Of a stretch of 64,000 bases of DNA, positions 13,123 to 51,694 are shown in pieces. Source of the stretch: a virus (Duplodnaviria > Caudoviricetes); the IMG/VR virus record IMGVR_UViG_3300020577_006105. One strand, 5' to 3'. Numbering within the stretch: position 1 is the stretch's first letter; every line of letters begins with the position of its first letter. Under the pieces are notes generated by a model that worked only from the letters and a program-made list of their open reading frames with translations, made no database searches and was not told where the DNA came from. Both the position numbers and the translations under genes were made by a program.

Positions 13123-13150
13123 AGGTATCGAGAATATTGGTGCAGAAAAA
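13123..13150 (+). promoter_or_regulatory. AGG-N19-GAA putative phage late promoter
   Basis: AGG TATCGAGAATATTGGTGCA GAAAAA upstream of the 13193 gene. Confidence 0.55.
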
Positions 13151-13192
13151 CAATGCAGGGACGCCTCGACGGCCCAACACAGGAGAAACACA

Positions 13193-13639
13193 ATGCCAAC
13201 ATATCCAAGCAATTTGAACGACCCTTCAACAACGGTCAATAACTTGACCGATTTGCGAGAACTTAACAACCCAGTGGGTACAAACGGTGACCCGGACATC
13301 AGTAACCCAACTGCGACCTATGATGATGTCGCCACAGCCCTCAACAAACTCTTGGTTGAACTCTATCAAGTCAAGAGCCAGTTCATCGGCATGTACGACA
13401 TTGCTGACCCAACCGGCGTTGGTGTAACAACCAACTCCAACATCACGTCGGCTGAACAAGCCTACATCTCTGCACATTTTGGATTGAAGATTCACTATCT
13501 CACCAGTCGCGCAATGTCGTTGGCTCGAGAGATTCAGAACATCCAAGCCGACATCAACACTGCCGTTGGTTCCTCTGGTGCCCAGGCTCCTGTTGGTGTT
13601 ACGGCTACAATGCCTTCGGACTACAACCGAGGCTGGTAA
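13193..13639 (+). CDS. Hypothetical protein, likely abundant virion component (148 aa)
   Basis: Strong SD (AGGAG, 7 nt before ATG), own putative promoter and a strong terminator. C-ending codon bias. Helical segments. Confidence 0.75.
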   Translation: MPTYPSNLNDPSTTVNNLTDLRELNNPVGTNGDPDISNPTATYDDVATALNKLLVELYQVKSQFIGMYDIADPTGVGVTTNSNITSAEQAYISAHFGLKIHYLTSRAMSLAREIQNIQADINTAVGSSGAQAPVGVTATMPSDYNRGW

Positions 13640-13679
13640 CAATCCCATCTGTGTTCGAGGCACGACGGGTTCGTCCTTC

Positions 13680-13713
13680 AAACAAGACACTGCATTGCAG
13701 TGTCTTGTTTTTT
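13680..13713 (+). terminator. Intrinsic terminator
   Basis: AAACAAGACACTGC-ATT-GCAGTGTCTTGTTT perfect stem running into a T tract. Confidence 0.85.
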
Positions 13714-13715
13714 GT

Positions 13716-13743
13716 AGGTGAAGTGTGCCTAGCTTTATAAATA
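13716..13743 (+). promoter_or_regulatory. AGG-N19-TAA putative phage late promoter
   Basis: AGG TGAAGTGTGCCTAGCTTTA TAAATA, 6 nt before GTG 13750. Confidence 0.6.
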
Positions 13744-13749
13744 CTCATT

Positions 13750-14052
13750 GTGGACATCAAACAGTACATGAAGCCCCAAAGTCAAGGGAAAACATCAAAG
13801 TTTTCTCTTACTCGTACTTGTCCAGGGTGTAACAAGCAGTTCAATATGTCAGAAGTGGCATGGGTTTCCAATCCCCGCTGCTTTATGAACAATTCAAGTG
13901 ATTGTCCATTAGTCCAAGCACAAAACGCATGGATACAGAATAATCCAATCGACAGTAGATTACAGACTGCAGAAAGTCTTTACGAAATGGGTAATGACCG
14001 AATTGCCAACAAAGTCATCGACCAGTTACTCGATGATATCCTCGGAATCTGA
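13750..14052 (+). CDS. Small Cys-containing protein with C-terminal G-x4-A-x2-V helical motif (100 aa)
   Basis: CPGC...C...C putative Zn site; ends LQTAESLYEMGNDRIANKVIDQLL. Confidence 0.65.
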   Translation: MDIKQYMKPQSQGKTSKFSLTRTCPGCNKQFNMSEVAWVSNPRCFMNNSSDCPLVQAQNAWIQNNPIDSRLQTAESLYEMGNDRIANKVIDQLLDDILGI

Positions 14053-15309: not shown

Positions 15310-15315
15310 ACAAGC

Positions 15316-15324
15316 ATTATACCA
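15316..15324 (-). promoter_or_regulatory. Extended -10 element (TGGTATAAT) 6 nt before GTG start
   Basis: Consensus TGnTATAAT; no SD between it and the start. Confidence 0.65.
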
Positions 15325-15905: not shown

Positions 15906-16262
15906 TTAAAACGCCCCACTTAAGGCCTTGTCAAGCAAAGCACCGGCAAATTTGAGCCTTTCTGCCGGGTCAGTGACATCATGTAACTCGAACAAAATAC
16001 AATCTGTTTTATGGTTGAGTTTTTTGCTGATAACCTTGTATTGCTTGCCGCTTATATCAACGATTTGACCATCAGACATTTGAACAGTCGATAGGTCTTT
16101 GCCCTTGATGCTTTTTGCTGCTTTATTGCAGGCCACCAACCCATTACTTGGGCTGGTAACAAAGGCCGGACACTGAATGGCATCAACTAAACCTCTTACG
16201 AGTGCTGTGGCGGTGTTTGGGTCTTTTAGTGGCATAACTGGCTCCACTAAATCTTTTCGCAC
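15906..16262 (-). CDS. Stand-alone PAS-like domain protein (118 aa)
   Basis: LVDAIQCPAFVTSPSNGLVACNKAAKSI and terminal FELHDVTD...ERLK match the PAS N-cap (N.AA) and DIT motifs. Confidence 0.55.
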   Translation of the reverse strand: MRKDLVEPVMPLKDPNTATALVRGLVDAIQCPAFVTSPSNGLVACNKAAKSIKGKDLSTVQMSDGQIVDISGKQYKVISKKLNHKTDCILFELHDVTDPAERLKFAGALLDKALSGAF

Positions 16263-16278
16263 GCAGTGATATTACAAC

Positions 16279-17238
16279 CTACGACTCATTATCAAAAATT
16301 CTCTTTTGATAGTCCTCAAACACGTCCATTGTAGTGTCATCTGGAATCAGAATCACAATGTGTTTCAAATTCTTGGTTTGAACAGTGACCAAGAACTCAT
16401 GGATGGTCGAAATCTGTGCTTGAGCAGTAAGTTCAATGTCATATCCACCATAATCCATCGGCATCATTGCCAACGTGGTAATACCGTTAGCCTCTGCGTG
16501 ATATAGTGTTTTCCTTACAGCGTCTTCGATTTCAACAACATTGATGGATTGTACTCCGGCGACAACTCCTCGGTACACCAAACTACGCGCACTGACACTT
16601 GGATATGGCGACTTGACCGGATACACCTCTCCTGTCACAATTGGCCCTTGATAAGACGTGCTTGCTGCATCGAAATACGCGCCGGCATGTCTCATAAGCA
16701 TAAGGTCCATTGGTTCCAACAAGTTGTTTACAGGAACCAACATTGCATCACATTTGACCTTATATGGGTCTGGAACCTGGTGCATAGAAAACGTTGCATC
16801 AGAGGCATATTCAAGACTACCGGCAGAATAGCTTTCTTGTTCGGATTCTGCACGCTCTTCGGCCTGTTTTTCAGCAATTGCCGGTGGAGTAAATGAAGTT
16901 AATGGACGAGCCTCTGGTTCGTCTTCATCTTCGTCTTCAAATGGATTGTATGTATCAGCCACATCTCGGGCATTGGGGTCTACATCGCCCTCGTCATAAT
17001 CATACAACAGCGGCAAAACACTACAATTGTCCCACGAACCACCACAGTCTTCGGCCCAATCTTCGGGTGTTAAGTCACGGCTTTCTGAGACCAAACTTGT
17101 CGCCTCGTCTAATGTCATCGCATTCTTGATAAAGCAAAAACCCTTACCGCTCTTGTTCGGAGTGTAAAATGGACACGAGCAAGCCTCGGTAATATGCTGA
17201 ATCACAGCTATTTGTGTCTTTGGTTTTCTAGGTGGCAC
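16279..17238 (-). CDS. Cys-rich N-terminus + acidic linker + degenerate macrodomain (319 aa)
   Basis: KCDAMLVPVNNLL...RHAG...GEVYPVKSP...LYHAEANGITTLAMMPMDYGGY...LKHIVIL follows macrodomain order; N-terminal CSCPFY..C..C..C. Confidence 0.65.
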   Translation of the reverse strand: MPPRKPKTQIAVIQHITEACSCPFYTPNKSGKGFCFIKNAMTLDEATSLVSESRDLTPEDWAEDCGGSWDNCSVLPLLYDYDEGDVDPNARDVADTYNPFEDEDEDEPEARPLTSFTPPAIAEKQAEERAESEQESYSAGSLEYASDATFSMHQVPDPYKVKCDAMLVPVNNLLEPMDLMLMRHAGAYFDAASTSYQGPIVTGEVYPVKSPYPSVSARSLVYRGVVAGVQSINVVEIEDAVRKTLYHAEANGITTLAMMPMDYGGYDIELTAQAQISTIHEFLVTVQTKNLKHIVILIPDDTTMDVFEDYQKRIFDNES

Positions 17239-19594: not shown

Positions 19595-19601
19595 AGTATC
19601 T

Positions 19602-19629
19602 CTATTCATATCACAGCATTGTCAAACCT
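19602..19629 (-). promoter_or_regulatory. AGG-N19-GAA putative phage late promoter
   Basis: AGG TTTGACAATGCTGTGATAT GAATAG, 7 nt before ATG 19594. Confidence 0.55.
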
Positions 19630-19673
19630 ATATTCACAGGAAAGTTCGCAACCAATTCCGTACAAAGAGGTAT

Positions 19674-21263
19674 ATGTCGCAAAATCTGCAATCCATAGCT
19701 GACTGGATGATATTCCACAAACCATTGTACATGGGGCGTATTGTCAGAACACACACACGTGGTGGTGTGAACTTCATTGTCGAGGAAGCCAATGAAAGTC
19801 AACACCGTAAGTGGTTTGCCTTCAATTTCGTGGATGAATCTGGAGAATTTGATGGTATCGACATATTTACCCATCGCCTATTGGTGGGCAGGCACAAGCT
19901 GTTGACCAAGCTCAACCAACTCAAATACGCAGAAGACTTTTATGCCTCTCTCAATAACAGCAAGGTCAAAGAACTTCTTGGTCCGGAATTCAGTTCTCTC
20001 GGCGGACAATGGATACAAATAACTGGCGTCGAAGACGTCAATACATCCTATGCCTGGTTGGTGCTTTCACCTTGGGGCAAGGTATGGCTGTCAAGATTGG
20101 CAATTCTTTGTTTGGCTGTTGCGACCACGGATAACTTCACAACATCAGACATGGTTGACCAGTCTGCAATCTCTCTTAATGACCTACCACAGCCAATGCA
20201 AATTTTAGCCTCGTCTAACTTGCACACCAACAAACAGGGAGATTCCACCATTACGGATAATCATACCATTGTGAGCTCATATAACCCTGCGAGAAAATTC
20301 AGAAGCGACACCGCAGAACTGTCGGTTCAAAATACATTTGGCCACCTATATGGTCTGGAACAATATGCTGCTGTTCGCGGAGATAGCCTGTGGGACCCAG
20401 ACCAAATCGGAAAAACACTTGGGCGCACGGCACTCACGGGTCTGGCAACATTCTTCACTGGTGGTGGTTTCTGGGGTGCGCCGCTTTCGTATATCAATCA
20501 AGAGTGGGAAAGAGGCCAATACCTAAATGCATCAATACCAGATAAGGTTAAACAACAATGTGATGACCTGTATGACGAGGCACTTATCATGGTTGAAATT
20601 GCTAAAAATGTGAAAGATGCCAACGTCACTTTCACAACCAACAAACTTAGAGAAGCAGTTGATGACCTAAGAAAAACGCTGCCGGCTAGATTTAAGGGCT
20701 TGGCATATGACCCCAAGAGTTTCTACAACGGCACCCCAGACGCGTTGCGTCAAAGATACCGCTCTGTGTTTTCACAAACACAAACCACAAAACCAGACAA
20801 CACCAAGCCATTGGGTGTGTCAGAACCAGAAGACAAATCATTGCTGTCAAAGATAGACGCAGACAGATTGCCAGAATCTGCCGGACTTGGCATTAAAACC
20901 ATGCTTACAAAACCAAGTGCGTGGAACCCCAACAAATGGGGAGCGATAGTTGCTCCTATGATAGTGCCACATGCAGAACGAGCATTGGCCATACATGCAA
21001 TAGGCGGACCTAGTGTCGCCATTGACAACCAGGCAAACAAAATGCGAGAGATAATGGCCGAGATTAAGGTCTTAGCAAGAGAATTCGATTACCAGAACAA
21101 AAGCAAGACACCAATATATCCAGATGTGCAAGTGGCCACAAATATCATCCACAGCTTCTTGGTAAAAATTGCTAATTCTTTACCTGAAAAAATGCAACCA
21201 GAGACAGAGCAACCAAACTACAAACAAATACCAGGTGTCGACCCGAATGTGTATCCGTCTTAA
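19674..21263 (+). CDS. Long stop-free frame (529 aa from ATG 19674) spanning an antisense DUF1289 gene
   Basis: GAGG/TACAAA just upstream of ATG 19674; no stop until 21263; may be two genes fused by a missing stop. Confidence 0.45.
   Translation: MSQNLQSIADWMIFHKPLYMGRIVRTHTRGGVNFIVEEANESQHRKWFAFNFVDESGEFDGIDIFTHRLLVGRHKLLTKLNQLKYAEDFYASLNNSKVKELLGPEFSSLGGQWIQITGVEDVNTSYAWLVLSPWGKVWLSRLAILCLAVATTDNFTTSDMVDQSAISLNDLPQPMQILASSNLHTNKQGDSTITDNHTIVSSYNPARKFRSDTAELSVQNTFGHLYGLEQYAAVRGDSLWDPDQIGKTLGRTALTGLATFFTGGGFWGAPLSYINQEWERGQYLNASIPDKVKQQCDDLYDEALIMVEIAKNVKDANVTFTTNKLREAVDDLRKTLPARFKGLAYDPKSFYNGTPDALRQRYRSVFSQTQTTKPDNTKPLGVSEPEDKSLLSKIDADRLPESAGLGIKTMLTKPSAWNPNKWGAIVAPMIVPHAERALAIHAIGGPSVAIDNQANKMREIMAEIKVLAREFDYQNKSKTPIYPDVQVATNIIHSFLVKIANSLPEKMQPETEQPNYKQIPGVDPNVYPS
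20048..20251 (-). CDS. DUF1289-family small Cys-rich (putative Fe-S/metal-binding) protein (67 aa)
   Basis: SPCLLVCKLDEAKICIGCGRSLREIADWSTMS..VKLSV matches the DUF1289 pattern SPC..VC......C.GC.R...EI..W..M; TGGTATGAT extended -10 lies 8 nt upstream. Confidence 0.85.
   Translation of the reverse strand: MVESPCLLVCKLDEAKICIGCGRSLREIADWSTMSDVVKLSVVATAKQRIANLDSHTLPQGESTNQA
20236..20263 (+). promoter_or_regulatory. AGG-N19-TAA putative phage late promoter
   Basis: AGG GAGATTCCACCATTACGGA TAATCA, 7 nt before in-frame GTG 20271. Confidence 0.5.
20271..21263 (+). CDS. Hypothetical protein (330 aa), possible internal virion protein
   Basis: GTG start MSSYNPARKF... downstream of the late-type motif; Gly-rich hydrophobic stretch TALTGLATFFTGGGFWGAPL. 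Confidence 0.6.
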   Translation: MSSYNPARKFRSDTAELSVQNTFGHLYGLEQYAAVRGDSLWDPDQIGKTLGRTALTGLATFFTGGGFWGAPLSYINQEWERGQYLNASIPDKVKQQCDDLYDEALIMVEIAKNVKDANVTFTTNKLREAVDDLRKTLPARFKGLAYDPKSFYNGTPDALRQRYRSVFSQTQTTKPDNTKPLGVSEPEDKSLLSKIDADRLPESAGLGIKTMLTKPSAWNPNKWGAIVAPMIVPHAERALAIHAIGGPSVAIDNQANKMREIMAEIKVLAREFDYQNKSKTPIYPDVQVATNIIHSFLVKIANSLPEKMQPETEQPNYKQIPGVDPNVYPS

Positions 21264-23500
21264 TCATTGCCGGCTATCTCTTGCAATCGGCTTGACAACC
21301 CCGTATTTCGATTGATGACCTTATCATTGTTGATTGCGGTAACAAGCGCATTGTGCTCTCCCATAATCAAACAAATCCTTTTAGCTCTTGTCACACAGGT
21401 ATAGAGCAAATTGCGCTGTAACATGATACCGTGGCAACTCTGAAGCACAAAAATCACAACCGGAATCTCAGAACCTTGAGACTTGTGAACTGTTGAAACC
21501 CAAGCGTGCTGAATTTGGTCAAGTGTCTCGTCGTCATACTCCACCGGGTGGATTATGTCTGGATACCGAACTGCGACCAATGGTCCATCAGCGGTCATAG
21601 AACTCGAGACAATATATCCAATGTCTCCATTGAACACACCAGAATCACCAAGCATATAGTTGTTCTTTATCTGCATGACCCTGTCACCAACACGCAGTAT
21701 CCTATGGCCGTCTTTGATTTGGTCTACGCCTGGTTTTTCAGGGTTAACGGCATCTTGCATCCATGGATTCATCTCATCCACAGAATATTTACCGGTGCGC
21801 CTTGGTGTCAAAATCTGTATGTCTTTCGCTTTCAAGTTGGCACCGTTATCATCGGTCAATTTGGGAATTTCTTTGGTGATAAGTTGCAAAATGAAACTTT
21901 GCATTTTTGATGAATCATCACCGATGTTTACCATCATGCAGTTTTTGCCTTTAGAATCCTTTGGAGTTGGCAAATCTGGAATTTCGCCCCCAACAATCGA
22001 GTGAGCCACATCAACAATGGTGTTTCCAGTCTCTTGTCGAAACACCTTGTTCAGACGCACCACCGGAATGACTCCAGAGTCAATGATATCATGCAAAACA
22101 TTGCCAGCGCCGACAGACGGTAATTGGTCTTTATCGCCTATCATCACAATTCTCGTGCTTGTTTCTAGTGCCCTAAGTAGGTCTCTGAACAAACGCAAGT
22201 CCACCATAGAAAACTCATCAACCAAGACAAAGTTTGTGGTCAATGGCAACGATGAATTGTGCATAAACGTGTTTGTGCTCGGTTGCCACGACAGCAGGCG
22301 ATGAATGGTTCTCGCTTGTTTACCAGATGATTCTGACAGTCGCTTGGCCGCACGACCAGTCGGTGAACACAATTCATAGCTGTATCCATGCTTATCCAAC
22401 AAAGAGACCAGTGCTCGAGTAATAGTGGTCTTTCCAGTCCCAGGACCGCCAGTAATAACGCACACCCGCTCATTCAAAGCGGTCATAATGGCTTGCAACT
22501 GAAGTCCATCTAACTTAATTGATGAATCAAAATTGGGCAAATCGTCCAGGTCACTTTCTACCTGTTCGTAATTGTTGTAGTGTTTTTTGCCGTGAGGGTA
22601 CTGAATCATCTTTACCAGTTCGCCAGCAACTTCAACCTCGGCATTGTACATCTCAGCCGAATATGTTGACGCTCCGTCGATGACAATATCACCGCTTTTT
22701 CTGAGAGTATTGACGCAGGTGCCAACCTGACTAGACTCTACATTGAGTAAATCACAAACCGACGCTATCAAACGATTAGTGTTCATGTAGCAGTGCCCCT
22801 GAACACCATATTCATCTAACGTGTATTTGATTGCTGCTTCAATTCTCCTTGGAGAATCACGCAATATATTGCACCTCAGAGCAACCTCGTCAGCGCGAGT
22901 AAATCCAATTCCACGCACTTCTGTCAGTCGATATGGATTGGATTTCAAAACATCCAATATGTTTTCATTTTCAAAGTGTTTGATTACACGATGTGCCAGC
23001 ACTGATGTCAGTCCGAGTTTTATGAGCTCAAGAGAACCGCGTTGATTATTGCGTGCCTTTGCCCACAACTCAGCAACTCGCTTGAGGCGGTTTGAGTTGG
23101 CACCCTTGACTTCAAACACGCGCTCTGGGTCTGCGTCCAGAATCTCAACCACGTTCTCACCAAAATGATTGACAATTAACGATGCTGTGACATCTCCTAC
23201 ATCTGGAAAGTCGTCACCTGCTAAGTATCGCTTTAAGCCATCCAATGTTGAATAACCACACGATATCAGGTCTACAACCTTGTACTGTGTGCCATACTTC
23301 TCATGCACGGATTTCTTGGCAGTGACAGCGATATTCATGCCCTCGGTGACACCAGGCATTGTGCCAACAACTGTCACAAGGTCTATCGCGAGTGACTTAT
23401 CATCATCTAATTTTGGCACAATGTTTGCAATGCACCATCCACTGTCAAATCTACGTATAGATGAGACCTCACCATTTATCGTCAGCACCGAATCGGCCAT
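21260..23500 (-). CDS. recD2: RecD2/TraA-family SF1B helicase (~746 aa)
   Basis: N-terminal OB and HhH region (NPYRLTEVRGIGFTRAD), Walker A TGGPGTGKT, PTGRAAKRL, VDEFSMVD, GDKDQLPSVGAG, TVHKSQGSE, LLYTCVTRAK. ATG 23500 is 7 nt after TGCGATAAT. Confidence 0.95.
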   Translation of the reverse strand: MADSVLTINGEVSSIRRFDSGWCIANIVPKLDDDKSLAIDLVTVVGTMPGVTEGMNIAVTAKKSVHEKYGTQYKVVDLISCGYSTLDGLKRYLAGDDFPDVGDVTASLIVNHFGENVVEILDADPERVFEVKGANSNRLKRVAELWAKARNNQRGSLELIKLGLTSVLAHRVIKHFENENILDVLKSNPYRLTEVRGIGFTRADEVALRCNILRDSPRRIEAAIKYTLDEYGVQGHCYMNTNRLIASVCDLLNVESSQVGTCVNTLRKSGDIVIDGASTYSAEMYNAEVEVAGELVKMIQYPHGKKHYNNYEQVESDLDDLPNFDSSIKLDGLQLQAIMTALNERVCVITGGPGTGKTTITRALVSLLDKHGYSYELCSPTGRAAKRLSESSGKQARTIHRLLSWQPSTNTFMHNSSLPLTTNFVLVDEFSMVDLRLFRDLLRALETSTRIVMIGDKDQLPSVGAGNVLHDIIDSGVIPVVRLNKVFRQETGNTIVDVAHSIVGGEIPDLPTPKDSKGKNCMMVNIGDDSSKMQSFILQLITKEIPKLTDDNGANLKAKDIQILTPRRTGKYSVDEMNPWMQDAVNPEKPGVDQIKDGHRILRVGDRVMQIKNNYMLGDSGVFNGDIGYIVSSSMTADGPLVAVRYPDIIHPVEYDDETLDQIQHAWVSTVHKSQGSEIPVVIFVLQSCHGIMLQRNLLYTCVTRAKRICLIMGEHNALVTAINNDKVINRNTGLSSRLQEIAGND

Positions 23501-23507
23501 ATTCAGG

Positions 23508-23518
23508 ATTATCGCACC
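23508..23518 (-). promoter_or_regulatory. GGTGCGATAAT extended -10-like element
   Basis: The identical 11-mer also lies upstream of the UvsW-like helicase (47729-47739). Confidence 0.55.
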
Positions 23519-23580
23519 TTGGTTCAAAAACCTTCCACCTGACTCGTCTAGAATTTTGTCGCATGTTTGTCACCCTACTT

Positions 23581-23608
23581 AGGCATGTATATCTTTCTTA
23601 GTTAAATG
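23581..23608 (+). promoter_or_regulatory. AGG-N19-TAA putative phage late promoter
   Basis: AGG CATGTATATCTTTCTTAGT TAAATG. Confidence 0.4.
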
Positions 23609-23722
23609 GTTAAGATTAGTTTCTAAAATCCTTGTGGGCCTGTTGTAATTTCAGTGATAAAAAGCCATGACATAGAATCCGTACAATATGGTTTGAAAGC
23701 AGTCGTATTTGTCGTATGCTGC

Positions 23723-23750
23723 AGGTCACATATGAGAAATATGAGAACAA
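23723..23750 (+). promoter_or_regulatory. AGG-N19-GAA putative phage late promoter
   Basis: AGG TCACATATGAGAAATATGA GAACAA. Confidence 0.5.
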
Positions 23751-25998: not shown

Positions 25999-26026
25999 TT
26001 TTTAGTCTGTTGATTGCCTTAAACCT
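25999..26026 (-). promoter_or_regulatory. AGG-N19-TAA putative phage late promoter
   Basis: AGG TTTAAGGCAATCAACAGAC TAAAAA, immediately before ATGATG. Confidence 0.6.
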
Positions 26027-26052
26027 TGTCTTAGTCCTGTACAACTTTACAC

Positions 26053-28467: not shown

Positions 28468-28477
28468 CTCCGTGTAT

Positions 28478-28508
28478 AAACCCCTTGGAACTCACTTCTG
28501 AGGGGTTT
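28478..28508 (+). terminator. Hairpin between phoH and the TolB-repeat gene
   Basis: AAACCCCTTGGAA-CTCAC-TTCTGAGGGGTTT, 13-bp stem with G-U pairs; ends 8 nt before ATG 28517. Confidence 0.6.
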
Positions 28509-33948: not shown

Positions 33949-34001
33949 AGGTACAGATAATTCGCTTACATAAAGGAACATTGTCGACCAATGTTTAATG
34001 A
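33949..34001 (+). promoter_or_regulatory. Two overlapping AGG-N19-TAA putative late promoters
   Basis: AGG TACAGATAATTCGCTTACA TAAAGG (33949) and AGG AACATTGTCGACCAATGTT TAATGA (33974; the spacer is an inverted repeat). Confidence 0.6.
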
Positions 34002-39533: not shown

Positions 39534-39535
39534 TA

Positions 39536-39563
39536 AGGTGAACAGTGCCCTATGGTGGAAATA
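39536..39563 (+). promoter_or_regulatory. AGG-N19-GAA putative phage late promoter
   Basis: AGG TGAACAGTGCCCTATGGTG GAAATA; overlapped by the inverted repeat CTATGGTG/CACCATAG. Confidence 0.6.
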
Positions 39564-39576
39564 AACACCATAGACG

Positions 39577-40581
39577 ATGATTTACCGTGACACCCCAGGA
39601 CAATATGATGCCGGCCAAATTGCCACAGGTATTTTGGTGCGTGGAATCCGTGTGGATGGATACTACACGATTGTCAATTCGTGCGACATCAACTACGAGC
39701 ACGAAGTAGACCTGAAAAATTACATTCAGGGTGGCCCAAATTCCTCTATCGTTGATATGGGCAAGAAGGTAATAAAGGGCAGCATCACACTTCCGTTGCG
39801 CGTAGATAGAGACGGCGCACTAGAGTCAGCGGCACAAAGACTGCTTCAAATTGCACACAACCCTAGTGCGTCATCTGTTATCGACACAAATCATGTGTTG
39901 TCCTATGGTGGTATTGCAGCCGACAGGGACAACGGCGGTGACGCAGACAATGAACTTCTGTCGCTGAATTGCATGGTCATCGAATCACTCACAATCAAAA
40001 TGTCACCAGACTCTGGCGTCAACTTAACGGCTGCCTTTACTGGAATGATTGACAATCGCGAACCAGCAGACTTGGTGGCACCACCAAGTGACTATCTTCT
40101 CGGTCGACAATTGTCATTACAGGACTGTGATTGCTCTCGCGTCTCAAGTGCAATGAGGAACGTGGTTTCTTTTGAAGTATATGTGCGAAACAAGATTGTG
40201 GCACCTGTGTTTATTCCACCGTGTCATATCAACAATCGAGATGCAAGCGCACCGGGGACAGGACCAAATCAACCAAGTGATTGGGCTTTTATGCCAGAGC
40301 AGCCATTGATTCTCGGAGTGGAAGAAACTCGCTGGGGTGGCACATTTGAGGAAGTCCTTAGACTTGGCGGAGATACCGAAACGCACATGCACGCTGGTTG
40401 GATTCAGGATGAAGACCTTACATTCCAGTTTGGTCCAGCAAGCGCACTATTTAGAATTCCACTGTACAAAGTGTCAACAGTACCATTAATAGCAGGGGTA
40501 ATGAGACGCAAAACAGACTTCATGGGCATAGTTAAGCCCAGTCGCAAGAATAATCCAACCGAATTGTTCTTTTTCTCGTAA
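39577..40581 (+). CDS. Putative tail-tube-like structural protein (334 aa)
   Basis: Beta-rich; NYIQGGP...DMGKKVIKGSITLPL is shared with the next gene; late motif upstream. Confidence 0.5.
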   Translation: MIYRDTPGQYDAGQIATGILVRGIRVDGYYTIVNSCDINYEHEVDLKNYIQGGPNSSIVDMGKKVIKGSITLPLRVDRDGALESAAQRLLQIAHNPSASSVIDTNHVLSYGGIAADRDNGGDADNELLSLNCMVIESLTIKMSPDSGVNLTAAFTGMIDNREPADLVAPPSDYLLGRQLSLQDCDCSRVSSAMRNVVSFEVYVRNKIVAPVFIPPCHINNRDASAPGTGPNQPSDWAFMPEQPLILGVEETRWGGTFEEVLRLGGDTETHMHAGWIQDEDLTFQFGPASALFRIPLYKVSTVPLIAGVMRRKTDFMGIVKPSRKNNPTELFFFS

Positions 40582-40586
40582 AAAGC

Positions 40587-40648
40587 AGGACTGTTTCAGC
40601 CAGTGGCTTAAATCTGTAGTAGGTGCATGACGTTCAGTATGAGAATTG
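40587..40648 (+). promoter_or_regulatory. Two tandem AGG-N19-[TG]AA putative late promoters
   Basis: AGG ACTGTTTCAGCCAGTGGCT TAAATC (40587) and AGG TGCATGACGTTCAGTATGA GAATTG (40621). Confidence 0.6.
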
Positions 40649-40679
40649 AAATGTATGCCTTGTAAGTTGGGAAGATAAC

Positions 40680-41711
40680 ATGCCTATTAGAAACGAACTC
40701 TTGGGAGTATTCAAAACATTACGAATCGGTGGTGACCGCTTTGTTTTGGCCGAAACAGCAAAGCGCAACCGGTCGATGGATGTTCAGGCAAAAACATACA
40801 TTCAAGGTACGCCAAAAGCACGAATTCTAGACATCGGCGGCGCACATGAAAAGATTGACCTAACAATGCCTATTCTAGTAGGTCCGGGCTCTGCGCTAGA
40901 CGGCAGAACCTTGCTCTTGGAGCAAATCACAAATGCACTTGACCCAGTGAACGCCACGTTGCCACTTATTCAAAATGCAAGCATTTCTATCAACGAGAAC
41001 CAAACAAGTGTAAATCTTGGACTCATCAGCGATGGTGACCCAAATCAACCTCCGGTCTTCGAGGTGTTTTCAGACGTTCCTGCAGGATTTGATGGTGCCG
41101 GAAACAACGTACCGTCTTATCTGCTAGACCCTTCACTCGCCGGATGCCCAACACGCGTCGCTCGTTTTTATGATTTCAGAGTCAACCTTGCTGGATACTA
41201 CATGTATGTCATGAATGCACAGCTACAGGTTCAGGTACAAACCGCAGAGCACTACTTCCTTGGTGGTACCACAGACTGTGATGCCGGCAATGATGTTCAA
41301 GATTTGGCCCGCAACTGGGGCACCCAGTTCCCATTCATCGGTGTGTCTGGTGTTACTATTTCTGGTTCAGGTACCGCTGCTGTTTTGTTAGATGACCTGA
41401 CAGGCGACTACGATTTTGATGATTATGACCAGACCTATGCATGGCAAGAGGGAGATGAGTCTCTAAACCTTTCTTATGGAGAAAACGCAGGTTCAGATAT
41501 CACGCTTCAGTTGCCAGGACAATCGGTTTGTGTTCCTAGCACATTCTGCTTGAACATCTACAATCCAGATACAACCCAATGGGAGAGCTTGTTCTGGGAT
41601 GGAGCTCAAGAAGTTGTCGACCTGAGCAAAAGTGTAGTCAAGTCGTCATCGTTCAACGTCAGCACAGGATTGCTTACTGCTGAGTTTGAATTCTTCTGCT
41701 GGGTTAAGTAA
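40680..41711 (+). CDS. Putative tail-tube-like structural protein, paralogue of the upstream gene (343 aa)
   Basis: TYIQGTP...DIGGAHEKIDLTMPI; acidic, beta-rich; two late motifs upstream suggest high expression. Confidence 0.5.
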   Translation: MPIRNELLGVFKTLRIGGDRFVLAETAKRNRSMDVQAKTYIQGTPKARILDIGGAHEKIDLTMPILVGPGSALDGRTLLLEQITNALDPVNATLPLIQNASISINENQTSVNLGLISDGDPNQPPVFEVFSDVPAGFDGAGNNVPSYLLDPSLAGCPTRVARFYDFRVNLAGYYMYVMNAQLQVQVQTAEHYFLGGTTDCDAGNDVQDLARNWGTQFPFIGVSGVTISGSGTAAVLLDDLTGDYDFDDYDQTYAWQEGDESLNLSYGENAGSDITLQLPGQSVCVPSTFCLNIYNPDTTQWESLFWDGAQEVVDLSKSVVKSSSFNVSTGLLTAEFEFFCWVK

Positions 41712-44639: not shown

Positions 44640-44993
44640 CTATTCTGAATTGTTGTCGTTATCAAGTATGTTCTTGAGGCTCTCTGGTTTGGATAGTTTT
44701 TTACGGAAGTTGCGCATCTCTTCTACTGTGATAGGTTCGCCTTCTTTCACGGCCTCTTTCAGTGTCTTTGGCAACTTGTTGTAGTATTCATGCGCCATAG
44801 ACATAGGTTGACTTATGACAAATGTGTCAAGACACACTGGGCATCGAAGCACAGCATAGACCTCGATTTCGGACTGCAACATATAACCAAGATGAGACCC
44901 CCTTGTGAACAATCCATCGCAGTTGCGATTGAGACATCTTCGTGGCATACCAGAGATTTTGTGACTTCGCATAATGACCAAACCTATAATCAA
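44640..44993 (-). CDS. Small zinc-ribbon protein (~110 aa)
   Basis: RRCLNRNC...LRCPVC. Confidence 0.6.
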   Translation of the reverse strand: MIIGLVIMRSHKISGMPRRCLNRNCDGLFTRGSHLGYMLQSEIEVYAVLRCPVCLDTFVISQPMSMAHEYYNKLPKTLKEAVKEGEPITVEEMRNFRKKLSKPESLKNILDNDNNSE

Positions 44994-45018
44994 CTTCTAC
45001 AAAAACTCAACCTGCACC

Positions 45019-47706
45019 TTATTGAACTCTGTATACCTTAAATTCTGGTTCAAGTGCATATGCTCTCTTCCTTTTGAGAGAGTGGTCGTGCAAATCATCT
45101 TGCTCGTCTGAAAAATCAATAACAATCGCGTTCTCTTTACCCTCTGCTGGTCTTAGGATTCTTCCAACCTGCTGGAATGTCGTTACAGAAGACCGATTAG
45201 AACCCGCAAGTATCAATGAGTCAATAGCTGGTTCGTCAACACCAACGTTTGCCCATTGTGTTGCAATCAAAATATGTTCACCACGACCGCATCTGGCAAG
45301 CATTTCTAATCTGTAGTTCTCTACTTCTTCTGTAATGGTTTCATTACCACTACCATCATCTTTGCCTGGTACAAAGACCGAATCGTAAACCATTTGCTCG
45401 AGGATTTCACCGTGTTCAAGTCTTTCGACAAGTATGAGGACTTTTCTGCCTGCTGCAAAAAGACCTTCGGCAAACTGTTTGATTCGATAGTTTCTCTCCC
45501 AACAATTCACAACATGCTTGAAGTACGCATCATTGTAGTCTGAATGCGTTTCAATATGCTTGATTTTGACCATGAAGATATACGGTTTTACTAGCCATCC
45601 ATCTCTAATCAAGTCACTGGGGCGAATATTGATAAGAATGCGACCGAATGTGCCCTCAATACGTATCTCTTGGTTGTCCTCTCTCCAGGCCGTGGCTGTG
45701 ACACCAAAGCGGTAATACGATTTGGCTGCGTGCTCTCCAAGTCGCTGAATGACAATTGCAGCCGTGTGCGCCTCGTCTACAATGAAGACAGGCGTGTTTC
45801 TGATGAGTTGCTTGATTTGGCCCTTGTTGATAAGTTGTTGTTCGCGGTTTTTGAGCCGTGTTTGTGCCTTTCTCAACGCTGCCTTAGCTGATTTGACATC
45901 ACCCTTGCTTTCTTCGGCTTGTTTGAGCTTCCTTGTGGCATCATTCACGTCATCAATCAGTTGTGCCTTGGTTTTGCGAACTTGCAATCCAGTGAATTCA
46001 TCATATACAACCTTGTCGCCCTTTGCTGTGTATTTCTCATCAAATGCTTGTAGCGCGGTTTGCCATGTTAGGATATTGATGCCATCTGGATTCAAGTCGC
46101 AAATACTGTCGCCGGCGATACCGATTTTAGTCTTTTCTCCGTCAATTCTAAGGTACTTGTGAAACTCTTTTCTGGTTTGGTGCATCAGTGTTTTTGATGG
46201 CACAATGAACACAACTGGTAGTGCTTTGAGTTGCGCTATCAATTCGGCGGAAATCATAGTATTGTGTGTTGGAATCAATGTTTCGCCCGCAAGATACAGC
46301 TTACTTGGTGAGTCAACAGTAATGCATCTCACCGGAGTTGAACTGCGTTCATTGATTGATTTAACATACACGCGACCAATAGTCTTTCTTCGTTTGTAGT
46401 TTATTTTTTCAGATTTTCTAGGGAGTAAACACATGATGTAGTTACTTGGTGAAATCTTTATCCTCCATCTACTTCCAACAACTACTTTGTTTAGTTTTGC
46501 ATCTGATTTCTTAGCATTGACCTGGGCACCAAGACTTCTGCACAATTCAACTACATCTTTGGCAAGCCTTTCGTTGCATAATGTGATTTCTATACGACCA
46601 CAAGAGTCAACATGACCGTCTGTGTCTATGATTCCTGCTAAAACATGCTGTCTTGTTGTGATATTCCCTCGTAGATATTGTTCAGGCACATGCTTGTTAT
46701 TCCAAACACCGATTTCGCGCAATTTTTGTCGCATACCCTTGACGTAATAGTCATATTTGCTCACATGCCTAAGAATGAATCCATGTTTGGCAAATGCATC
46801 TATAAAATGAGACTCGGAAGTAGTGAATATGCCAGATTTGGTGCCACCATCGCCAAGCCAGCAACCGAGCAAATATGGGTCTAGCTCTACTTTCGCATCA
46901 ATTGAAGGATATGAAATCACACTTGGTCTGTCGATATAAAACATTGAACGTTTTTCAGTTCTTCTTTTTCGCTTTTTGGTTCTCCAAGTGCTATCGCCTT
47001 CATTGCGCATGTCATTGAGCATTTGCTGAGTGGTTACTGTAATCATTTGAGACTTGTCACTGTATCCAGGGGTAACTTTTACATTCCATAGATGCTCAGC
47101 GTCGGCAGTGATTGTACTACCATCAGAAAACTCAATATCATAACATGTCTGGTTAAACAATACCGAATGAGCGCACAAAACACGAGTCGTATTTCCATTA
47201 TCATCAAATACAATATCTCCCGTTTCGATTTCACCCATGGTGACCCATCCTCGATTTGCGGTCAAAATTGGAGTATTGATACACAGAGCTTTTCCGCCCC
47301 CGGTGGCGACTGATAACACACCTCGGCCGCGTGCCTTCGCAGCCTCAATGACCAATTCTTGATATGGTCTTAGGGTTCTTTTGTGCTCTTCAAACGCAGT
47401 TGTTACAAGTTTGTCCGTTTCTGGTTTTTCGCGTTTGTTTTCTATTACAAACTCAACATGTCGGTCTTGTAATACTTGCTTAACTCGAAACAACAATCCA
47501 GTTGGGAAAGATTTATCCCTCTTGTTGTATAGGGAAATCTTTCCATCCCAAGTACCCTCTTTGTACTTTTCAGACCACTCAGCACCGCTGACTTGATATG
47601 CCAAGGCATTGCGAAGCTCTTCTCTAATCTCATTAGAGACTTCGTAATCAGTGTGGAAATTCCCAAGTATGTTTGATACTGCGTTGTCTAGGACTATACG
47701 AACCAT
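45019..47706 (-). CDS. UvsW-like SF2 helicase containing an intein (895 aa precursor, ~552 aa spliced)
   Basis: N-terminal YQVSGAEWSEKYKEGTWDGKISL (UvsW-like), LRPYQ, ATGGGK|T, IVDEAH, GVTAT, QQVGRILR. Confidence 0.9.
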   Translation of the reverse strand: MVRIVLDNAVSNILGNFHTDYEVSNEIREELRNALAYQVSGAEWSEKYKEGTWDGKISLYNKRDKSFPTGLLFRVKQVLQDRHVEFVIENKREKPETDKLVTTAFEEHKRTLRPYQELVIEAAKARGRGVLSVATGGGKALCINTPILTANRGWVTMGEIETGDIVFDDNGNTTRVLCAHSVLFNQTCYDIEFSDGSTITADAEHLWNVKVTPGYSDKSQMITVTTQQMLNDMRNEGDSTWRTKKRKRRTEKRSMFYIDRPSVISYPSIDAKVELDPYLLGCWLGDGGTKSGIFTTSESHFIDAFAKHGFILRHVSKYDYYVKGMRQKLREIGVWNNKHVPEQYLRGNITTRQHVLAGIIDTDGHVDSCGRIEITLCNERLAKDVVELCRSLGAQVNAKKSDAKLNKVVVGSRWRIKISPSNYIMCLLPRKSEKINYKRRKTIGRVYVKSINERSSTPVRCITVDSPSKLYLAGETLIPTHNTMISAELIAQLKALPVVFIVPSKTLMHQTRKEFHKYLRIDGEKTKIGIAGDSICDLNPDGINILTWQTALQAFDEKYTAKGDKVVYDEFTGLQVRKTKAQLIDDVNDATRKLKQAEESKGDVKSAKAALRKAQTRLKNREQQLINKGQIKQLIRNTPVFIVDEAHTAAIVIQRLGEHAAKSYYRFGVTATAWREDNQEIRIEGTFGRILINIRPSDLIRDGWLVKPYIFMVKIKHIETHSDYNDAYFKHVVNCWERNYRIKQFAEGLFAAGRKVLILVERLEHGEILEQMVYDSVFVPGKDDGSGNETITEEVENYRLEMLARCGRGEHILIATQWANVGVDEPAIDSLILAGSNRSSVTTFQQVGRILRPAEGKENAIVIDFSDEQDDLHDHSLKRKRAYALEPEFKVYRVQ
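46261..47289 (-). mobile_element. Class-3 (Ala1, WCT) intein with LAGLIDADG homing endonuclease, 343 aa
   Basis: Inserted in Walker A GK|T. Starts ALCINTPILT..GW, block B ITADAEHLW, endonuclease motifs LLGCWLGDG and LAGIIDTDG, block F VRCITVD, ends LIPTHN|T. Confidence 0.9.
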
Positions 47707-48385: not shown

Positions 48386-49450
48386 TTATTTCTCCGGCGC
48401 ATTCTCGTTGGTTGTCAAATATGCATTCAGCGCTGCTTCTTGCGCATCTGACAACTTGTCAGGCATCTTATACACGACTACGATATTTGCGTCATGTCGT
48501 TTACCGCTCATATCGCACAAACCTTTGTGTTTTAACACGATACGAGTGTTTGGTTCTGTCATCTTAGGAATATCTATTATCAATTCCTCTTTTGGCTTCA
48601 AGCCATTGGCTTTTACCTTACATCCAAGCATGGCTCTTATAGGGTCTACAAGCAGTTCATAGTTGGCTGTATACCCGTCAAATTTACAATGCCTGCTGAC
48701 AGGCACGACTACGATGACTAAATCACCTGGTGGTGCTGATAGTGTTTCTTGATGGCCTTGTTCGGATACAACCATACTACCGAATGCACAATTAGCCGGC
48801 ATTTTGAGAGAGATTTCTTCGTTTGATGTCTTGAGTCCAATTCCATCACATGATTTGCAATTTGAATCGTAGGTTTGACCTTTGCCTCTGCATTTATCAC
48901 ATACACCTCGCTCTTGTATTACCATGTTGCCCGCCCTTCTTACTTGCGTTCTATATCCAACACCCTGACATTCGTTGCAGATTGTTATGTTGCCAGCACC
49001 ACCGCTTCCAGAGCAATCTCGACACGCAGACACTTTTTGATACTTGATGTGTGCGTCATGTTCTGAGAACAGTTTTGATGCATTGACCTCATAATGCACT
49101 ACAACATTCGGATTTCTGACTTGTGGTTGATGGAAGTTAAACCCAAATCCATTCATAAAGTCGAATGGATTTCCAGCCCCGTCCCATTCGTGCCTGCCAG
49201 TACGAGAATAAATCGGTTCTCCGCTGGAGTCAATTACCCCGTTGTCAAAATCCCTGCGCTTTTCAGGGTCGGTTAAGAGCGCATAAGCAGCTCCAATTTC
49301 TTTGAATTTCTCTTCTGCCTCAGTGTTGTTTGGGTTGACGTCTGGATGATATTGCCTCGCGAGCTTGCGATAGGCAGATTGGATTTCCTTGGCCGAAGCT
49401 GTCTTGCTTACTCCAAGTATCTCATATGGAGATTTTGTTTGGCCACTCAT
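48386..49450 (-). CDS. dnaJ: Class A J-protein DnaJ (354 aa)
   Basis: J-domain (YHPDVN), G/F-like linker, four CxxCxGxG repeats, PGDLVI C-terminal domain. TGGTATCAT lies 6 nt before the ATG. Confidence 0.95.
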   Translation of the reverse strand: MSGQTKSPYEILGVSKTASAKEIQSAYRKLARQYHPDVNPNNTEAEEKFKEIGAAYALLTDPEKRRDFDNGVIDSSGEPIYSRTGRHEWDGAGNPFDFMNGFGFNFHQPQVRNPNVVVHYEVNASKLFSEHDAHIKYQKVSACRDCSGSGGAGNITICNECQGVGYRTQVRRAGNMVIQERGVCDKCRGKGQTYDSNCKSCDGIGLKTSNEEISLKMPANCAFGSMVVSEQGHQETLSAPPGDLVIVVVPVSRHCKFDGYTANYELLVDPIRAMLGCKVKANGLKPKEELIIDIPKMTEPNTRIVLKHKGLCDMSGKRHDANIVVVYKMPDKLSDAQEAALNAYLTTNENAPEK

Positions 49451-49465
49451 AATGATATGATACCA

Positions 49466-50131
49466 TTATCGAGACATTGAGTGTATAGCATCGGCAACAA
49501 TAGACACCAGCTTGTTACTTGGCTGTACACTGTTGAGGCCGACAAGCAATGGTGTTTGCCCGGTTCTGTCAAGAATTCCCAGAACCATTCCAATGAGCTT
49601 TCCGTCTTGGTTTAAGACCATCCCGCCACTTGAACCAGGCAGAAGGTCAATATCAATGAGAATCAAGTCGTTCCATGCTGGCGAATTCTCATCTATCTCT
49701 GGTGATTGGTGAATGTTTGTGACTCTGCCAACCGTACTTGTATCGTGAAACCCTTCCGGGGAAGCAATTACTGCTATCATATCCCCTCGCTCGACCTCAT
49801 TGCTGTTTCCGAACTCTATCTTTCCAATGTGTTCTTTGATTTTTGGCAAATAGACAATAGCTATGTCCAATTCGGGATTGGATGAAATCATTTTAGCCGG
49901 ATACATTGATATGCCATCGAATGTAACATTGATAGACACTGAAGGAGAGTACTCACCAATCACATGAGCAGCCGTCACAATCAATCCATGCCCGACGTGA
50001 AACCCGCTTCCTGTGGCGTATTCTTTTGGCGTAACAACAGACACAGTACACGAAGCCTGTTGCCCAATGCGAATTACTTCTCGCATTGGGTCTTCGTTTT
50101 TGTACTGGGCGTATCTGTTGATTCTATGCAT
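49466..50131 (-). CDS. Trypsin-like (S1/HtrA-type, no PDZ) serine protease with MHRINRYAQ N-terminus
   Basis: GSGF, TAAHV (His), LDIAIV (Asp), PGSSGG (Ser). Confidence 0.9.
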   Translation of the reverse strand: MHRINRYAQYKNEDPMREVIRIGQQASCTVSVVTPKEYATGSGFHVGHGLIVTAAHVIGEYSPSVSINVTFDGISMYPAKMISSNPELDIAIVYLPKIKEHIGKIEFGNSNEVERGDMIAVIASPEGFHDTSTVGRVTNIHQSPEIDENSPAWNDLILIDIDLLPGSSGGMVLNQDGKLIGMVLGILDRTGQTPLLVGLNSVQPSNKLVSIVADAIHSMSR

Positions 50132-50687
50132 GTTTATGATTGAAGTTTACAGGCGGCGGTGTTTTTCTTTGGTTCACAACTGATGGATACCAAAATGTCT
50201 CCGGTGTTTCTGTATAGTTCATTACTCCTATGATATCTTTTACATCAACAAGTCCAATATACCCAGAACCTAAACTAATATTGTTGGGTGCATCGCCCTC
50301 AACCCATATGTAATCCAGTGGTATGCTTATCCATTCATGCGACAGATTAAGCCATACGTATTCCATCGACACAATAGATGCATAGAACTGTCCATCGTTG
50401 ATGCCGTAACACACTGGTATTTCATCACCAGATAGTGCTACGATTCGTTTGATGTATGTTTCATTTTTGATTTTGAAGATGATAACATCTCCGCGTTGTA
50501 ATTGCCTCCCCTTTTTGTTTGCCAAATGCCATGAACCGTTTTTGTAAGTTGGTTCCATAGAGTGACCGTTTATGGTCACAAGCACGAATGGTGAAAAAAA
50601 GTTGAGCCACACAAGTGACAAGATTAAAGATATTGATATAGTGTATACGGTTAGTTTAGTCCACTTTTCGTGTTGAGACACCTTCAT
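50124..50687 (-). CDS. lepB: Signal peptidase I (S26)
   Basis: N-terminal TM, GHSMEPT (Ser), RGDVIIF, YIKRIVA (Lys), WVEGD. Confidence 0.88.
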   Translation of the reverse strand: MKVSQHEKWTKLTVYTISISLILSLVWLNFFSPFVLVTINGHSMEPTYKNGSWHLANKKGRQLQRGDVIIFKIKNETYIKRIVALSGDEIPVCYGINDGQFYASIVSMEYVWLNLSHEWISIPLDYIWVEGDAPNNISLGSGYIGLVDVKDIIGVMNYTETPETFWYPSVVNQRKTPPPVNFNHKHA

Positions 50688-50729
50688 TTATTTGGTTACC
50701 ATCATTTCTGTTACAGGTGCCAAAGTACA

Positions 50730-51650
50730 TTATTGTTTCCAATTGACGTTGGCAAAATCAGGGATACCAAAGCCTACATCTCCATCCTTGCCGATGTGCC
50801 CTGCACGACCCTTAGGGTCGCATACTGAGTCAAGAGCCTCGAGCATCTTCAGATACCCCTTAATTGGCTCAACCCCGGCAGTATTACGGCTGTGTGATAT
50901 CAATAAAGCACACACACCAGCCACATAGGGCGCCGCTTGACTAGTTCCATTCAAGACAGCATATCCATTGTTCAAACTAGTGGAGTAAATACCCACACCA
51001 GGTGCGCTAACATCGACTGCGGAGTCATGTGAAGAGAAATGTGCCATATTGCCCTGTTGGTCAATGGCGGCAACCGCAATAACTTCGTCGTATCTTGCGG
51101 GATAATTTACAGCAGCGGCGTCGTTCCCTGCCGCAGAAATCACAATGATTCCCTTGGCGGCGGCTTCTTGAATTGCTGCATATAAGCTGGGTGGTGGTGG
51201 CTGAGGAGAACCAAGGCTAAGGTTGATGATATCAGCACCATTTGAAATAGCGTGATGAATTCCCTGCTCAATCCAACCATAGTTTCCACGCGCAGAATCA
51301 TTTAGAACTTTGACTGACATAATTCTGGCTTCTGGCGCAACCCCAATAACACCATTGTCGTTAATTTCTCTAGCCGCAATAATTCCGGCCACGTGTGTTC
51401 CATGTCCCTGTTGGTCTAGAATAGTTTGTGAATCTGTGAAGTTAACTTTGTCGCCAAAAATCGCGCCGTCTAAACACGGATGCGAGGCCACACCGGTGTC
51501 TAATACAGCGACAAGTACGCCTTCACCCTTTGTGTGCTTCTGTGCTTCAGAAATATGCGACATGAAAATGCCCCAATTTTGGGCTTTCTCAATAGACATG
51601 GCCATAATTTCTGGATACATGTCTTCTGGTGTTAGAAAATCAATTAACAT
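50730..51650 (-). CDS. Subtilisin-like S8 serine protease (306 aa, no signal peptide)
   Basis: VAVLDTG, HGTHVAG, INLSLG, AAGN, GTSQAAP. Confidence 0.95.
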   Translation of the reverse strand: MLIDFLTPEDMYPEIMAMSIEKAQNWGIFMSHISEAQKHTKGEGVLVAVLDTGVASHPCLDGAIFGDKVNFTDSQTILDQQGHGTHVAGIIAAREINDNGVIGVAPEARIMSVKVLNDSARGNYGWIEQGIHHAISNGADIINLSLGSPQPPPPSLYAAIQEAAAKGIIVISAAGNDAAAVNYPARYDEVIAVAAIDQQGNMAHFSSHDSAVDVSAPGVGIYSTSLNNGYAVLNGTSQAAPYVAGVCALLISHSRNTAGVEPIKGYLKMLEALDSVCDPKGRAGHIGKDGDVGFGIPDFANVNWKQ

Positions 51651-51666
51651 ATGTGCCTCATGTCAT

Positions 51667-51694
51667 ATATTCGATGACTAGAGCACAGTTACCT
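51667..51694 (-). promoter_or_regulatory. AGG-N19-GAA putative phage late promoter
   Basis: AGG TAACTGTGCTCTAGTCATC GAATAT, upstream of the S8-S26-S1 protease run. Confidence 0.55.

Follow-up and report, generated by a model that had tools for sequence, protein, structure and literature searches.

A fixed-spacing AGG-N19-KAA element as a candidate promoter class in an uncultured phage of ~480 kb

The 64,000-nt stretch of IMG/VR virus record IMGVR_UViG_3300020577_006105 (Duplodnaviria; Caudoviricetes) analyzed here, hereafter the window, carries ahead of a number of its genes a two-part element in which AGG is followed, after exactly 19 nt, by KAA (K = G/T). An earlier note, made from the letters alone, had listed 13 copies of this element and proposed that they form a late promoter class of sigma-H-like shape, read by a phage sigma factor encoded elsewhere in the genome. 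The question raised by this locus is whether so short a pattern is anything other than an accident and, if it is, what reads it. We find that AGG-N19-KAA is no accident: it is specific and conserved, has a set orientation and keeps a fixed geometry. We put at roughly 0.8 the probability that it forms a sigma-70-family promoter core with a SigH-like sigma factor as its most likely reader; promoter function, the identity of the sigma factor and leaderless translation are what we infer from the sequence.

Spacing, specificity and conservation of the two boxes

Over the window as a whole AGG-N19-KAA occurs 45 times, against 44.8 in shuffles, which is the chance level, so any signal must sit in position and spacing. 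Our unit of counting was AGG-Nn-KAA, with n from 5 to 40 and the AGG 1–100 nt upstream of a same-strand start, genes being called by a codon-usage log-odds score with greedy non-overlap. Counted in this manner, N19 reaches 14 in the window and the other spacings from N5 to N40 reach 1–6 (mean 2.9±1.1). The 13 listed copies are all present at the positions and on the strands that the earlier note gave, and the chance rate it assumed, about one per 2 kb on either strand, comes close to the one per 2.8 kb that is observed. The window alone is no proof, since many patterns of the same class score as high: in an exhaustive scan of 3-mer/spacer/3-mer combinations ~1,400 of 1.33 million patterns reach at least 11 upstream matches there, and the meaningless AAT-N34-SAA has 21. 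The fixed motif was therefore taken to a relative.

This relative, IMG/VR contig IMGVR_UViG_3300044957_000763 (G001 below), was reached via the topoisomerase protein of the window and fetched whole as a stand-in for genome-wide tests. It measures 478,840 bp with direct terminal repeats, is rated 100% complete, and is colinear with window positions 7603–64000 at 80–86% nucleotide identity; a megablast search of GenBank phages with 8 kb of the window gave no near match. Removing its window-homologous part (63–128 kb) leaves an out-of-sample set. All genome-wide counts given below refer to the relative.

One may suppose that the pattern arose by chance and was picked out by eye, the upstream AGG being a Shine-Dalgarno sequence and the TAA a stop codon. 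The whole-window count at expectation and the many patterns that reach at least 11 upstream matches speak for this supposition, as does the fact that an in-frame TAA ahead of the first start is partly a by-product of open reading frame (ORF) calling (control 0.39 at offset 12). Against it stands the behavior of the motif in the relative, where N19 is found 84 times upstream of starts versus 33.1±4.9 (maximum 43) over the other 35 spacings, without shoulders at N18 or N20. The out-of-sample count is 69 versus 30.1±4.5 (Poisson P = 9e-10), again as a spike exactly at N19, and intergenic DNA, whose counts are independent of start calls, contains 64 matches versus 28.2±5.7. Inside genes there is no N19 excess in either orientation (sense, 158 versus 171±18; antisense, 80 versus 83±8). 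The check that the earlier note had proposed, a genome-wide comparison of upstream and coding regions, thus yields an excess upstream and none within genes, and its statement that the copies share a fixed 19-nt gap holds in both phages. The AGG moreover lies at least 34 nt from the start and is for that reason no ribosome-binding site.

Both boxes are specific. In the first position AGG has z = 9, while TGG, CGG, GGG, AAG, ACG, ATG, AGA, AGC and AGT all remain at z ≤ 1.2. In the second, TAA (51 versus 13.7) and GAA (33 versus 18.6) are in excess and none of AAA, CAA, TTA, TCA, TGA, TAT, TAC, TAG and GAT is. The base following AGG is mostly T (45 versus 8.6) or A (21 versus 10.3) and that following KAA is A (41 versus 10) more often than T (19 versus 9.4), giving the consensus wAGGT-N18-TAAA. 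Since the spacers are unrelated to one another, the motif is no dispersed repeat. A longer box, AGGTGAAnnGTGCC, had been suspected at 13716, 39536 and 51694 and was dropped, a 20-site profile being without information outside the two cores.

Conservation between the two phages follows the same two cores. Of the 14 upstream N19 matches in the window, 13 have AGG, K and AA at an unchanged distance in the relative. For upstream matches with control spacings the figure is 34 of 63 (Fisher P = 0.005), and for N19 matches elsewhere in the window it is 10 of 31 (P = 0.0002); AGG and KAA are kept at all 13 sites of the earlier list. At several sites the boxes are intact and the spacers have drifted, to an identity of 0.47 at 40587, 0.58 at 26026, 0.63 at both 40621 and 45019, and 0.68 at 13716. 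At 23723, GAA in the window stands against TAA in the relative, an allowed variation of K. The tandem pairs 33949/33974 and 40587/40621, which the earlier note had described ahead of the 34044 operon and the second tube-like gene, are real and likewise conserved. Chance as an explanation is refuted by the spacing, box-specificity and conservation tests taken together, and we leave it hardly any probability.

Distance to start codons and predicted leaderless transcripts

The distance from K to the called start is 12 nt at 12 sites of the relative and 13–14 nt at 5, compared with the control of 0.39 per spacing at offset 12 that in-frame TAA stops and ORF calling produce. With gene calls ignored, RTG is still in excess at K offsets 10–13 (85 versus 54). 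T occupies position −1 in 15 of the 20 close-set sites, and when all upstream regions were scanned position by position, AGG at −34 and TAA at −12 were recovered independently. Taking the start codon as +1, K falls at −12 and AGG at −34 to −32, in the layout nAGGnn-N17-KAAnnn-N6-start, which reads as the canonical geometry of a sigma-70-family promoter. AGG would correspond to positions 2–4 of a −35 hexamer and KAA to the first three positions of a −10 hexamer (−12 to −10), with 17 bp between hexamers. Bound there through a SigH-like sigma factor, RNA polymerase would start transcription ~12 nt after K.

AGG-N19-KAA as a promoter core would, at about one third of sites, place the first transcribed base on the first base of the ATG or GTG, so that these sites are predicted to give leaderless mRNAs. 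The remaining sites lie 18–75 nt from the start and would give leaders of 5–60 nt, some with a Shine-Dalgarno sequence; clear ones are AGGAGA at 13193, GAGG at 51650 and GGAG at 16235. Two transposase genes of the relative (phrog_506; 284720–285889 and 254360–255538) have AGG-N19-TAA exactly 34–35 nt before their start.

The relative also holds seven perfect TTGACA-N16/17-TATAAT promoters (six N17, one N16; Table 1), mostly with a TG extension, where ~0.2 would be expected. Many near-perfect TTGACA/TATAAT sequences have a start codon 35–36 nt from the first T of TTGACA, the same layout as in the AGG class, and because of this distance the sigma-A-type promoters of this phage also look leaderless.

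Leaderless mRNAs and their promoters have been described in Mycobacterium (PMC3898074) and in a survey of bacteria (PMC3160421). The phage sites resemble these in the −10 element fixed ~12 nt before the start, the missing Shine-Dalgarno sequence and the pyrimidine at −1. They differ in that the arrangement lies in a phage and recurs across at least three promoter classes (AGG, TTGACA/TATAAT and TGTAYAA, the last described below), and leaderless transcription is predicted here from geometry.

The same boxes could instead be the binding site of a phage regulator, an activator or repressor, or a signal acting at the RNA level, with no contact to a sigma factor. In favor of this, one site, ahead of the gene upstream of the SigH-like sigma gene, overlaps a 13-bp perfect palindrome with compensatory changes, as an operator might. 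On the other hand the two boxes are asymmetric and strictly gene-oriented, they sit at −34 and −12 of starts, exactly where this genome places the −35 and −10 boxes of its sigma-A-type promoters, and the 17 bp between hexamers is rigid. In the leaderless cases an RNA signal is excluded, since the motif is not transcribed there. We consider a regulator site or RNA signal very unlikely and prefer the sigma-70-family promoter.

RNA contigs from the metatranscriptomes cross the 40581–40680 spacer, and one begins at 33924, upstream of both starts predicted there; they neither support nor refute the promoter reading. A contig on the second tube-like gene (window 40772–41435; run X13) has a depth of 88.5, against 3–13 on neighboring genes, and these contig-level data suggest that the gene is strongly expressed.

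A SigH-like sigma factor as the candidate reader

The SigH consensus in B. subtilis and B. thuringiensis is RNAGGAWWW / RNNGAATWW (PMC8510167), and among mapped C. difficile SigH promoters AGG-N19-GAA occurs in 6 of 11 and AGG-N18-GAA in 5 of 11 (PMC7438776, Table 3, counted by eye). The likeness to sigma-H-type promoters seen by the earlier note is therefore apt, since the mapped promoters share both the boxes and the N18/19 spacing. As in the Bacillota, the phage motif has an AGG core in the −35 box, an (G)AA core in the −10 box and the same AGG-to-AA distance, with a purine or A-rich base before AGG and A/T after it. The invariant AGG of the SigH −35 box is present, the next base being W with T preferred over the canonical A. 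Set beside RNNGAATWW, the phage −10 box is related without being identical: AA is invariant, T outnumbers G ahead of it (51 against 33 hits), and A outnumbers T after it. The SigH spacing of 18–19 nt between AGG and GAA is narrowed in the phage to a spike at N19 only.

Several features set the phage class apart from the Bacillota promoters. Its spacing is rigid at 19 with none at 18, AGGT is favored over AGGA, and the promoters lie in a phage genome, where they would probably be served by a phage copy of the sigma factor. Many of its sites also abut the start codon, whereas in C. difficile only 15 potentially leaderless genes are reported (PMC7438776).

The relative encodes four sigma-like ORFs (Table 1), all outside the region homologous to the window, and the genome search for a sigma70-family or SigH-like gene that the earlier note had suggested thus finds one in a 222-aa ORF. 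Its five best NCBIfam hits all belong to the SigH group (PRK08295/TIGR02859; three named SigH) over the full length at E = 8e-33; the best SigH model scores 113.6 bits and the next family 54 bits. Pfam Sigma70_r2 is matched above the cut-off (36.2 bits) and Sigma70_r4_2 just below it (22.9 bits), and the JGI annotation reads "RNA polymerase sigma-H factor". Judged by these matches the protein is SigH-like, no certified SigH. The SigH-like sigma factor that would read the boxes is most likely this 222-aa protein, encoded elsewhere in the phage genome, and the earlier proposal of a reader encoded away from the window is plausible, with four sigma-like ORFs far from the homologous region and one of them best matched by SigH models.

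The window's own phage very probably carries this gene as well, because samples SRR31616005 and SRR32380195 hold both parts at matching divergence: contigs 99.5–99.9% identical to window 38577–41581 (L034, L036) and a sigma locus (L040/L041) that is 86% identical to that of the relative, which is the divergence between the window and the relative. When viral contigs were searched with the sigma protein, the relative was the only match. Two further loci encode a SigH-like protein, 73% (L030, GC 51%) and 45% identical (L031, GC 57%), with the gene order clamp loader, sigma, sliding clamp, unknown gene, second sigma kept in both, and AGGT-N18-KAA stands ahead of two orthologous gene pairs there, numbers too small for statistics. 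The first of these loci (GCA_018268375.1, JAFDWS010000002.1, 161185–181850) lies on a 1.36-Mb contig binned as an Armatimonadetes bacterium and has the same phage-like module, made up of genes for primase, RecJ, RNR, clamp loader, SigH-like sigma, clamp and a second sigma. This may represent a provirus, result from wrong binning or a chimeric contig, or point to the host.

Close to the sigma gene itself, a small gene lies upstream of the SigH-like sigma, and the AGG-N19-GAA ahead of it overlaps the 13-bp perfect palindrome mentioned above (G001 431409–431460; L041 2409–2460), in which the two phages show compensatory changes. The palindrome may act as an autoregulatory operator or may terminate the clamp-loader gene.

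It is also important to consider that the promoters may be real and read by another factor, either the host's SigH or an alternative sigma, or the 189-aa, 285-aa or ~205-aa sigma-like protein of the phage. The presence of four sigma-like ORFs and the −10 preference for TAAA in place of the canonical GAAT are in keeping with such a reader. The 222-aa protein is, however, the only one to fit SigH models over its full length (113 bits versus ≤54 for other families), box shapes and spacing match SigH promoters (PMC7438776), and the TGTAYAA and CCGGYCCCGGA classes described below are available for other sigma factors. We regard another reader as rather unlikely and retain the SigH-like sigma factor.

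Several observations weigh against the reading as a SigH-type promoter class and should be kept beside it. The 222-aa protein scores below the equivalog cut-offs (113.6 versus 208 for NF006148, 111.2 versus 294.8 for TIGR02859), and at least four phage sigma-like genes, as well as the host's own SigH, are candidates for the reader. The phage −10 box prefers TAAA where Bacillota SigH has GAAT. The core carries only ~12–14 bits, and the chance share of upstream matches is ~1/5 in the window (2.9/14) and ~40% in the relative (33/84). About seven excess sites of the relative face no called gene. Two metatranscriptome runs cover the stretch only as assembled contigs, whose ends are not informative.

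Because the core carries so few bits, individual sites cannot be certified. Chance would account for ~3 of the window's 14 upstream matches, and the weakest candidates are 23581, whose target is not obvious, and one member of each tandem pair. The excess in the relative extends to antisense N19 matches in upstream windows (31 versus 11.4±3.8), 11–13 of which are divergent promoters, and the ~7 gene-less sites may serve small uncalled genes or RNAs.

Other phage promoter systems provide a second comparison. The T4 gp55 late promoter is TATAAATA with no −35 box, and SPO1 middle promoters combine a −35 box AGGAGA, which begins with AGG, with a −10 box TTTNTTT. The −10 box of the phage motif differs from both TTTNTTT and TATAAATA, and a temporal class is established for the SPO1 and T4 systems only. 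Part of one account describes SPO1 gp28 (middle), SPO1 gp33/34 (late) and T4 gp55 as phage sigma-factor cascades (PMC9429907). The likeness to these lies in a phage sigma-70-family protein that would redirect host core polymerase to a class of phage promoters, with several classes per genome.

In this respect the arrangement would be conceptually ordinary, a phage sigma/promoter switch of familiar kind that links one phage sigma-like gene to a candidate regulon. A more far-reaching reading, which we offer tentatively and hold at somewhat less than even odds, is that this lineage runs essentially its whole program on start-codon-fused promoters of at least three classes, sorted by its own four sigma-like factors, including a captured SigH retuned from GAAT to TAAA. 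Three classes at like distance from starts suggest a heavy reliance on leaderless mRNAs, which would be unusual for phages; if true, phage translation could do without Shine-Dalgarno pairing, the transcriptome being largely leaderless. No description of a largely leaderless phage transcriptome of this kind was found in the literature searched. For annotation, wAGGT-N18-TAAA with K at −12 offers a portable rule for transcription units and true starts in this clade of uncultured phages of ~0.5 Mb from rivers and wastewater; the present phage, uncultured and of ~480 kb, is found in river and wastewater metagenomes.

Individual sites, downstream genes and other box classes

The window is gene-dense and has four giant ORFs (2913+, 2696, 1809 and 1241 aa), along with genes for both type II topoisomerase subunits, a RecD/Dda-like helicase, a PhoH-like ATPase, a DnaB/primase-like helicase and proteases. 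Scanning it for Rfam families and tRNAs gave no matches. Table 1 collects the sites together with the other features discussed here.

Table 1. Features of the window and of the relative G001 (positions are those of the window unless G001 is named)
Feature	Position	Strand	Remarks
AGG-N19-GAA	13123..13147	+	70 nt before ATG 13193; AGGAGA Shine-Dalgarno; predicted leader ~36 nt; boxes and whole leader conserved
Intrinsic terminator, hairpin and T-run	13683..13713	+	Ends 13193-13639 gene, directly ahead of next promoter; compensatory changes in both stem arms
AGGT-N18-TAAA	13716..13740	+	GTG 13750 at +34, leaderless geometry; AGGT and TTTATAAA conserved, spacer 0.68
Site missed by earlier note	16256..16280	-	Likely start ATG 16235 (+45), GGAG Shine-Dalgarno; conserved
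AGGT-N18-GAA	19605..19629	-	ATG 19594 at +35, T at -1, leaderless geometry
Pattern match within gene, probably chance	20236..20260	+	Third-position bias of + frame from ~19728 runs through site
Pattern match, probably chance	23509..23533	-	Not in earlier list; 1-nt spacer indel in G001 breaks spacing
AGG-N19-TAA	23581..23605	+	Within ~110-nt intergenic block, 100% conserved
AGGT-N18-GAA	23723..23747	+	In-frame ATG 23762 at +39; spacer diverged
AGGT-N18-TAAA	26002..26026	-	ATG ATG at +32, +35 (25994/25991), leaderless geometry; spacer 0.58, boxes conserved
TGTACAA box	26038..26044	+	15 nt before ATG 26053
TGTATAA box	28473..28479	+	Ahead of 1809-aa gene
Tandem pair, first, ahead of 34044 operon	33949..33973	+	Conserved
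Tandem pair, second, ahead of 34044 operon	33974..33998	+	Conserved
AGGT-N18-GAAA	39536..39560	+	41 nt before ATG 39577; boxes conserved, spacer 0.74
Tandem pair, first, ahead of gene 40680	40587..40611	+	Spacer 0.47, boxes conserved
Tandem pair, second, ahead of gene 40680	40621..40645	+	59 nt before ATG 40680; conserved
Site missed by earlier note	44995..45019	-	Ahead of 117-aa gene 44640-44993; boxes conserved, spacer 0.63
AGGT-N18-GAA	51670..51694	-	44 nt before ATG 51650, GAGG Shine-Dalgarno; conserved
TGTACAA box	59784..59790	-	22 nt before ATG of 2696-aa gene
Perfect TTGACA/TATAAT promoters	G001 33651, 148166, 151122, 158773, 214192, 216784, 319043	-, +, +, +, -, -, +	
Sigma-like ORFs	G001 (222 aa: L003:1420-2088)		189 aa SigB/F/G-like; 285 aa SigI-like; ~205 aa region-4 protein; 222 aa SigH-like

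In general the copies do stand at or near gene starts as the earlier note had stated, with the exception of 20236, which falls within a coding region. The plus-strand gene there starts near 19707–19731, not at 20271, because substitutions between the window and the relative hit the third position of the plus frame from ~19728 on. Of the two ambiguous starts that the motif had been taken to settle, 19594 fits the promoter geometry, by its distance and the base at −1, and 20271 is refuted. The plus-strand ORF 13193–13639 is coding by its third-position substitutions, and ORF 13750–14052 is coding as well. For the site at 23723 the ORF cannot start at 23654, since the relative has non-triplet indels there, and ATG 23762 is the likely start.

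Two divergent intergenic stretches, 23540–23650 and 19595–19727, match the relative at ~100% identity for more than 100 nt, compared with 80–86% in the flanking genes. Small RNAs or regulatory DNA may lie in them, and Rfam has no match in either; the 23581 site might drive a small RNA or a transcript with a long leader. Nearby, a 1-nt indel lies immediately past TTG 23527 in the relative (window 23480–23527, minus strand), and on account of it the 755-aa RecD-like helicase probably starts further in.

Genes behind the motif in the window comprise the topoisomerase II operon (the 34044 operon, two genes of unknown function followed by both subunits), the minus-strand row at 51650, headed by the 51694 site and including proteases and the helicase-primase, two tail-tube-like paralogues (39577, with a weak Phage_tube_2 match at E = 2e-4, and 40680) and several genes of unknown function. 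Annotated genes behind the motif in the relative encode an endolysin-domain protein, a primase and two transposases. For 30 genes behind the sites, PHROG and Pfam mostly gave no match, so the temporal class could not be inferred, and the "late" label of the earlier note finds no support, the downstream genes being functionally mixed and the giant genes carrying a different box, TGTAYAA.

TGTAYAA stands ahead of the giant, probably virion, genes (1809 and 2696 aa) and of gene 26053. It is found in upstream windows of the relative 35 times versus 6 expected, 16 of these 14–16 nt before the start. It resembles an extended −10 element and could represent either the true late class or a sigma-A class with an extended −10.

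A further box, CCGG[CT]CCCGGA, is found ahead of each of ~60 short consecutive genes, its distance to an (AT)C-ATG start being fixed at ~38 nt. The block occupies 47 kb on the plus strand of the relative (322,000–369,400; L021–L023), and a GC-rich hairpin with a T-run often lies between box and start. CCGGYCCCGGA was considered as a −35 partner of GTATAAT and rejected, being a separate class confined to 322–369 kb; it looks like a separate and very rigid promoter or terminator-promoter cassette.

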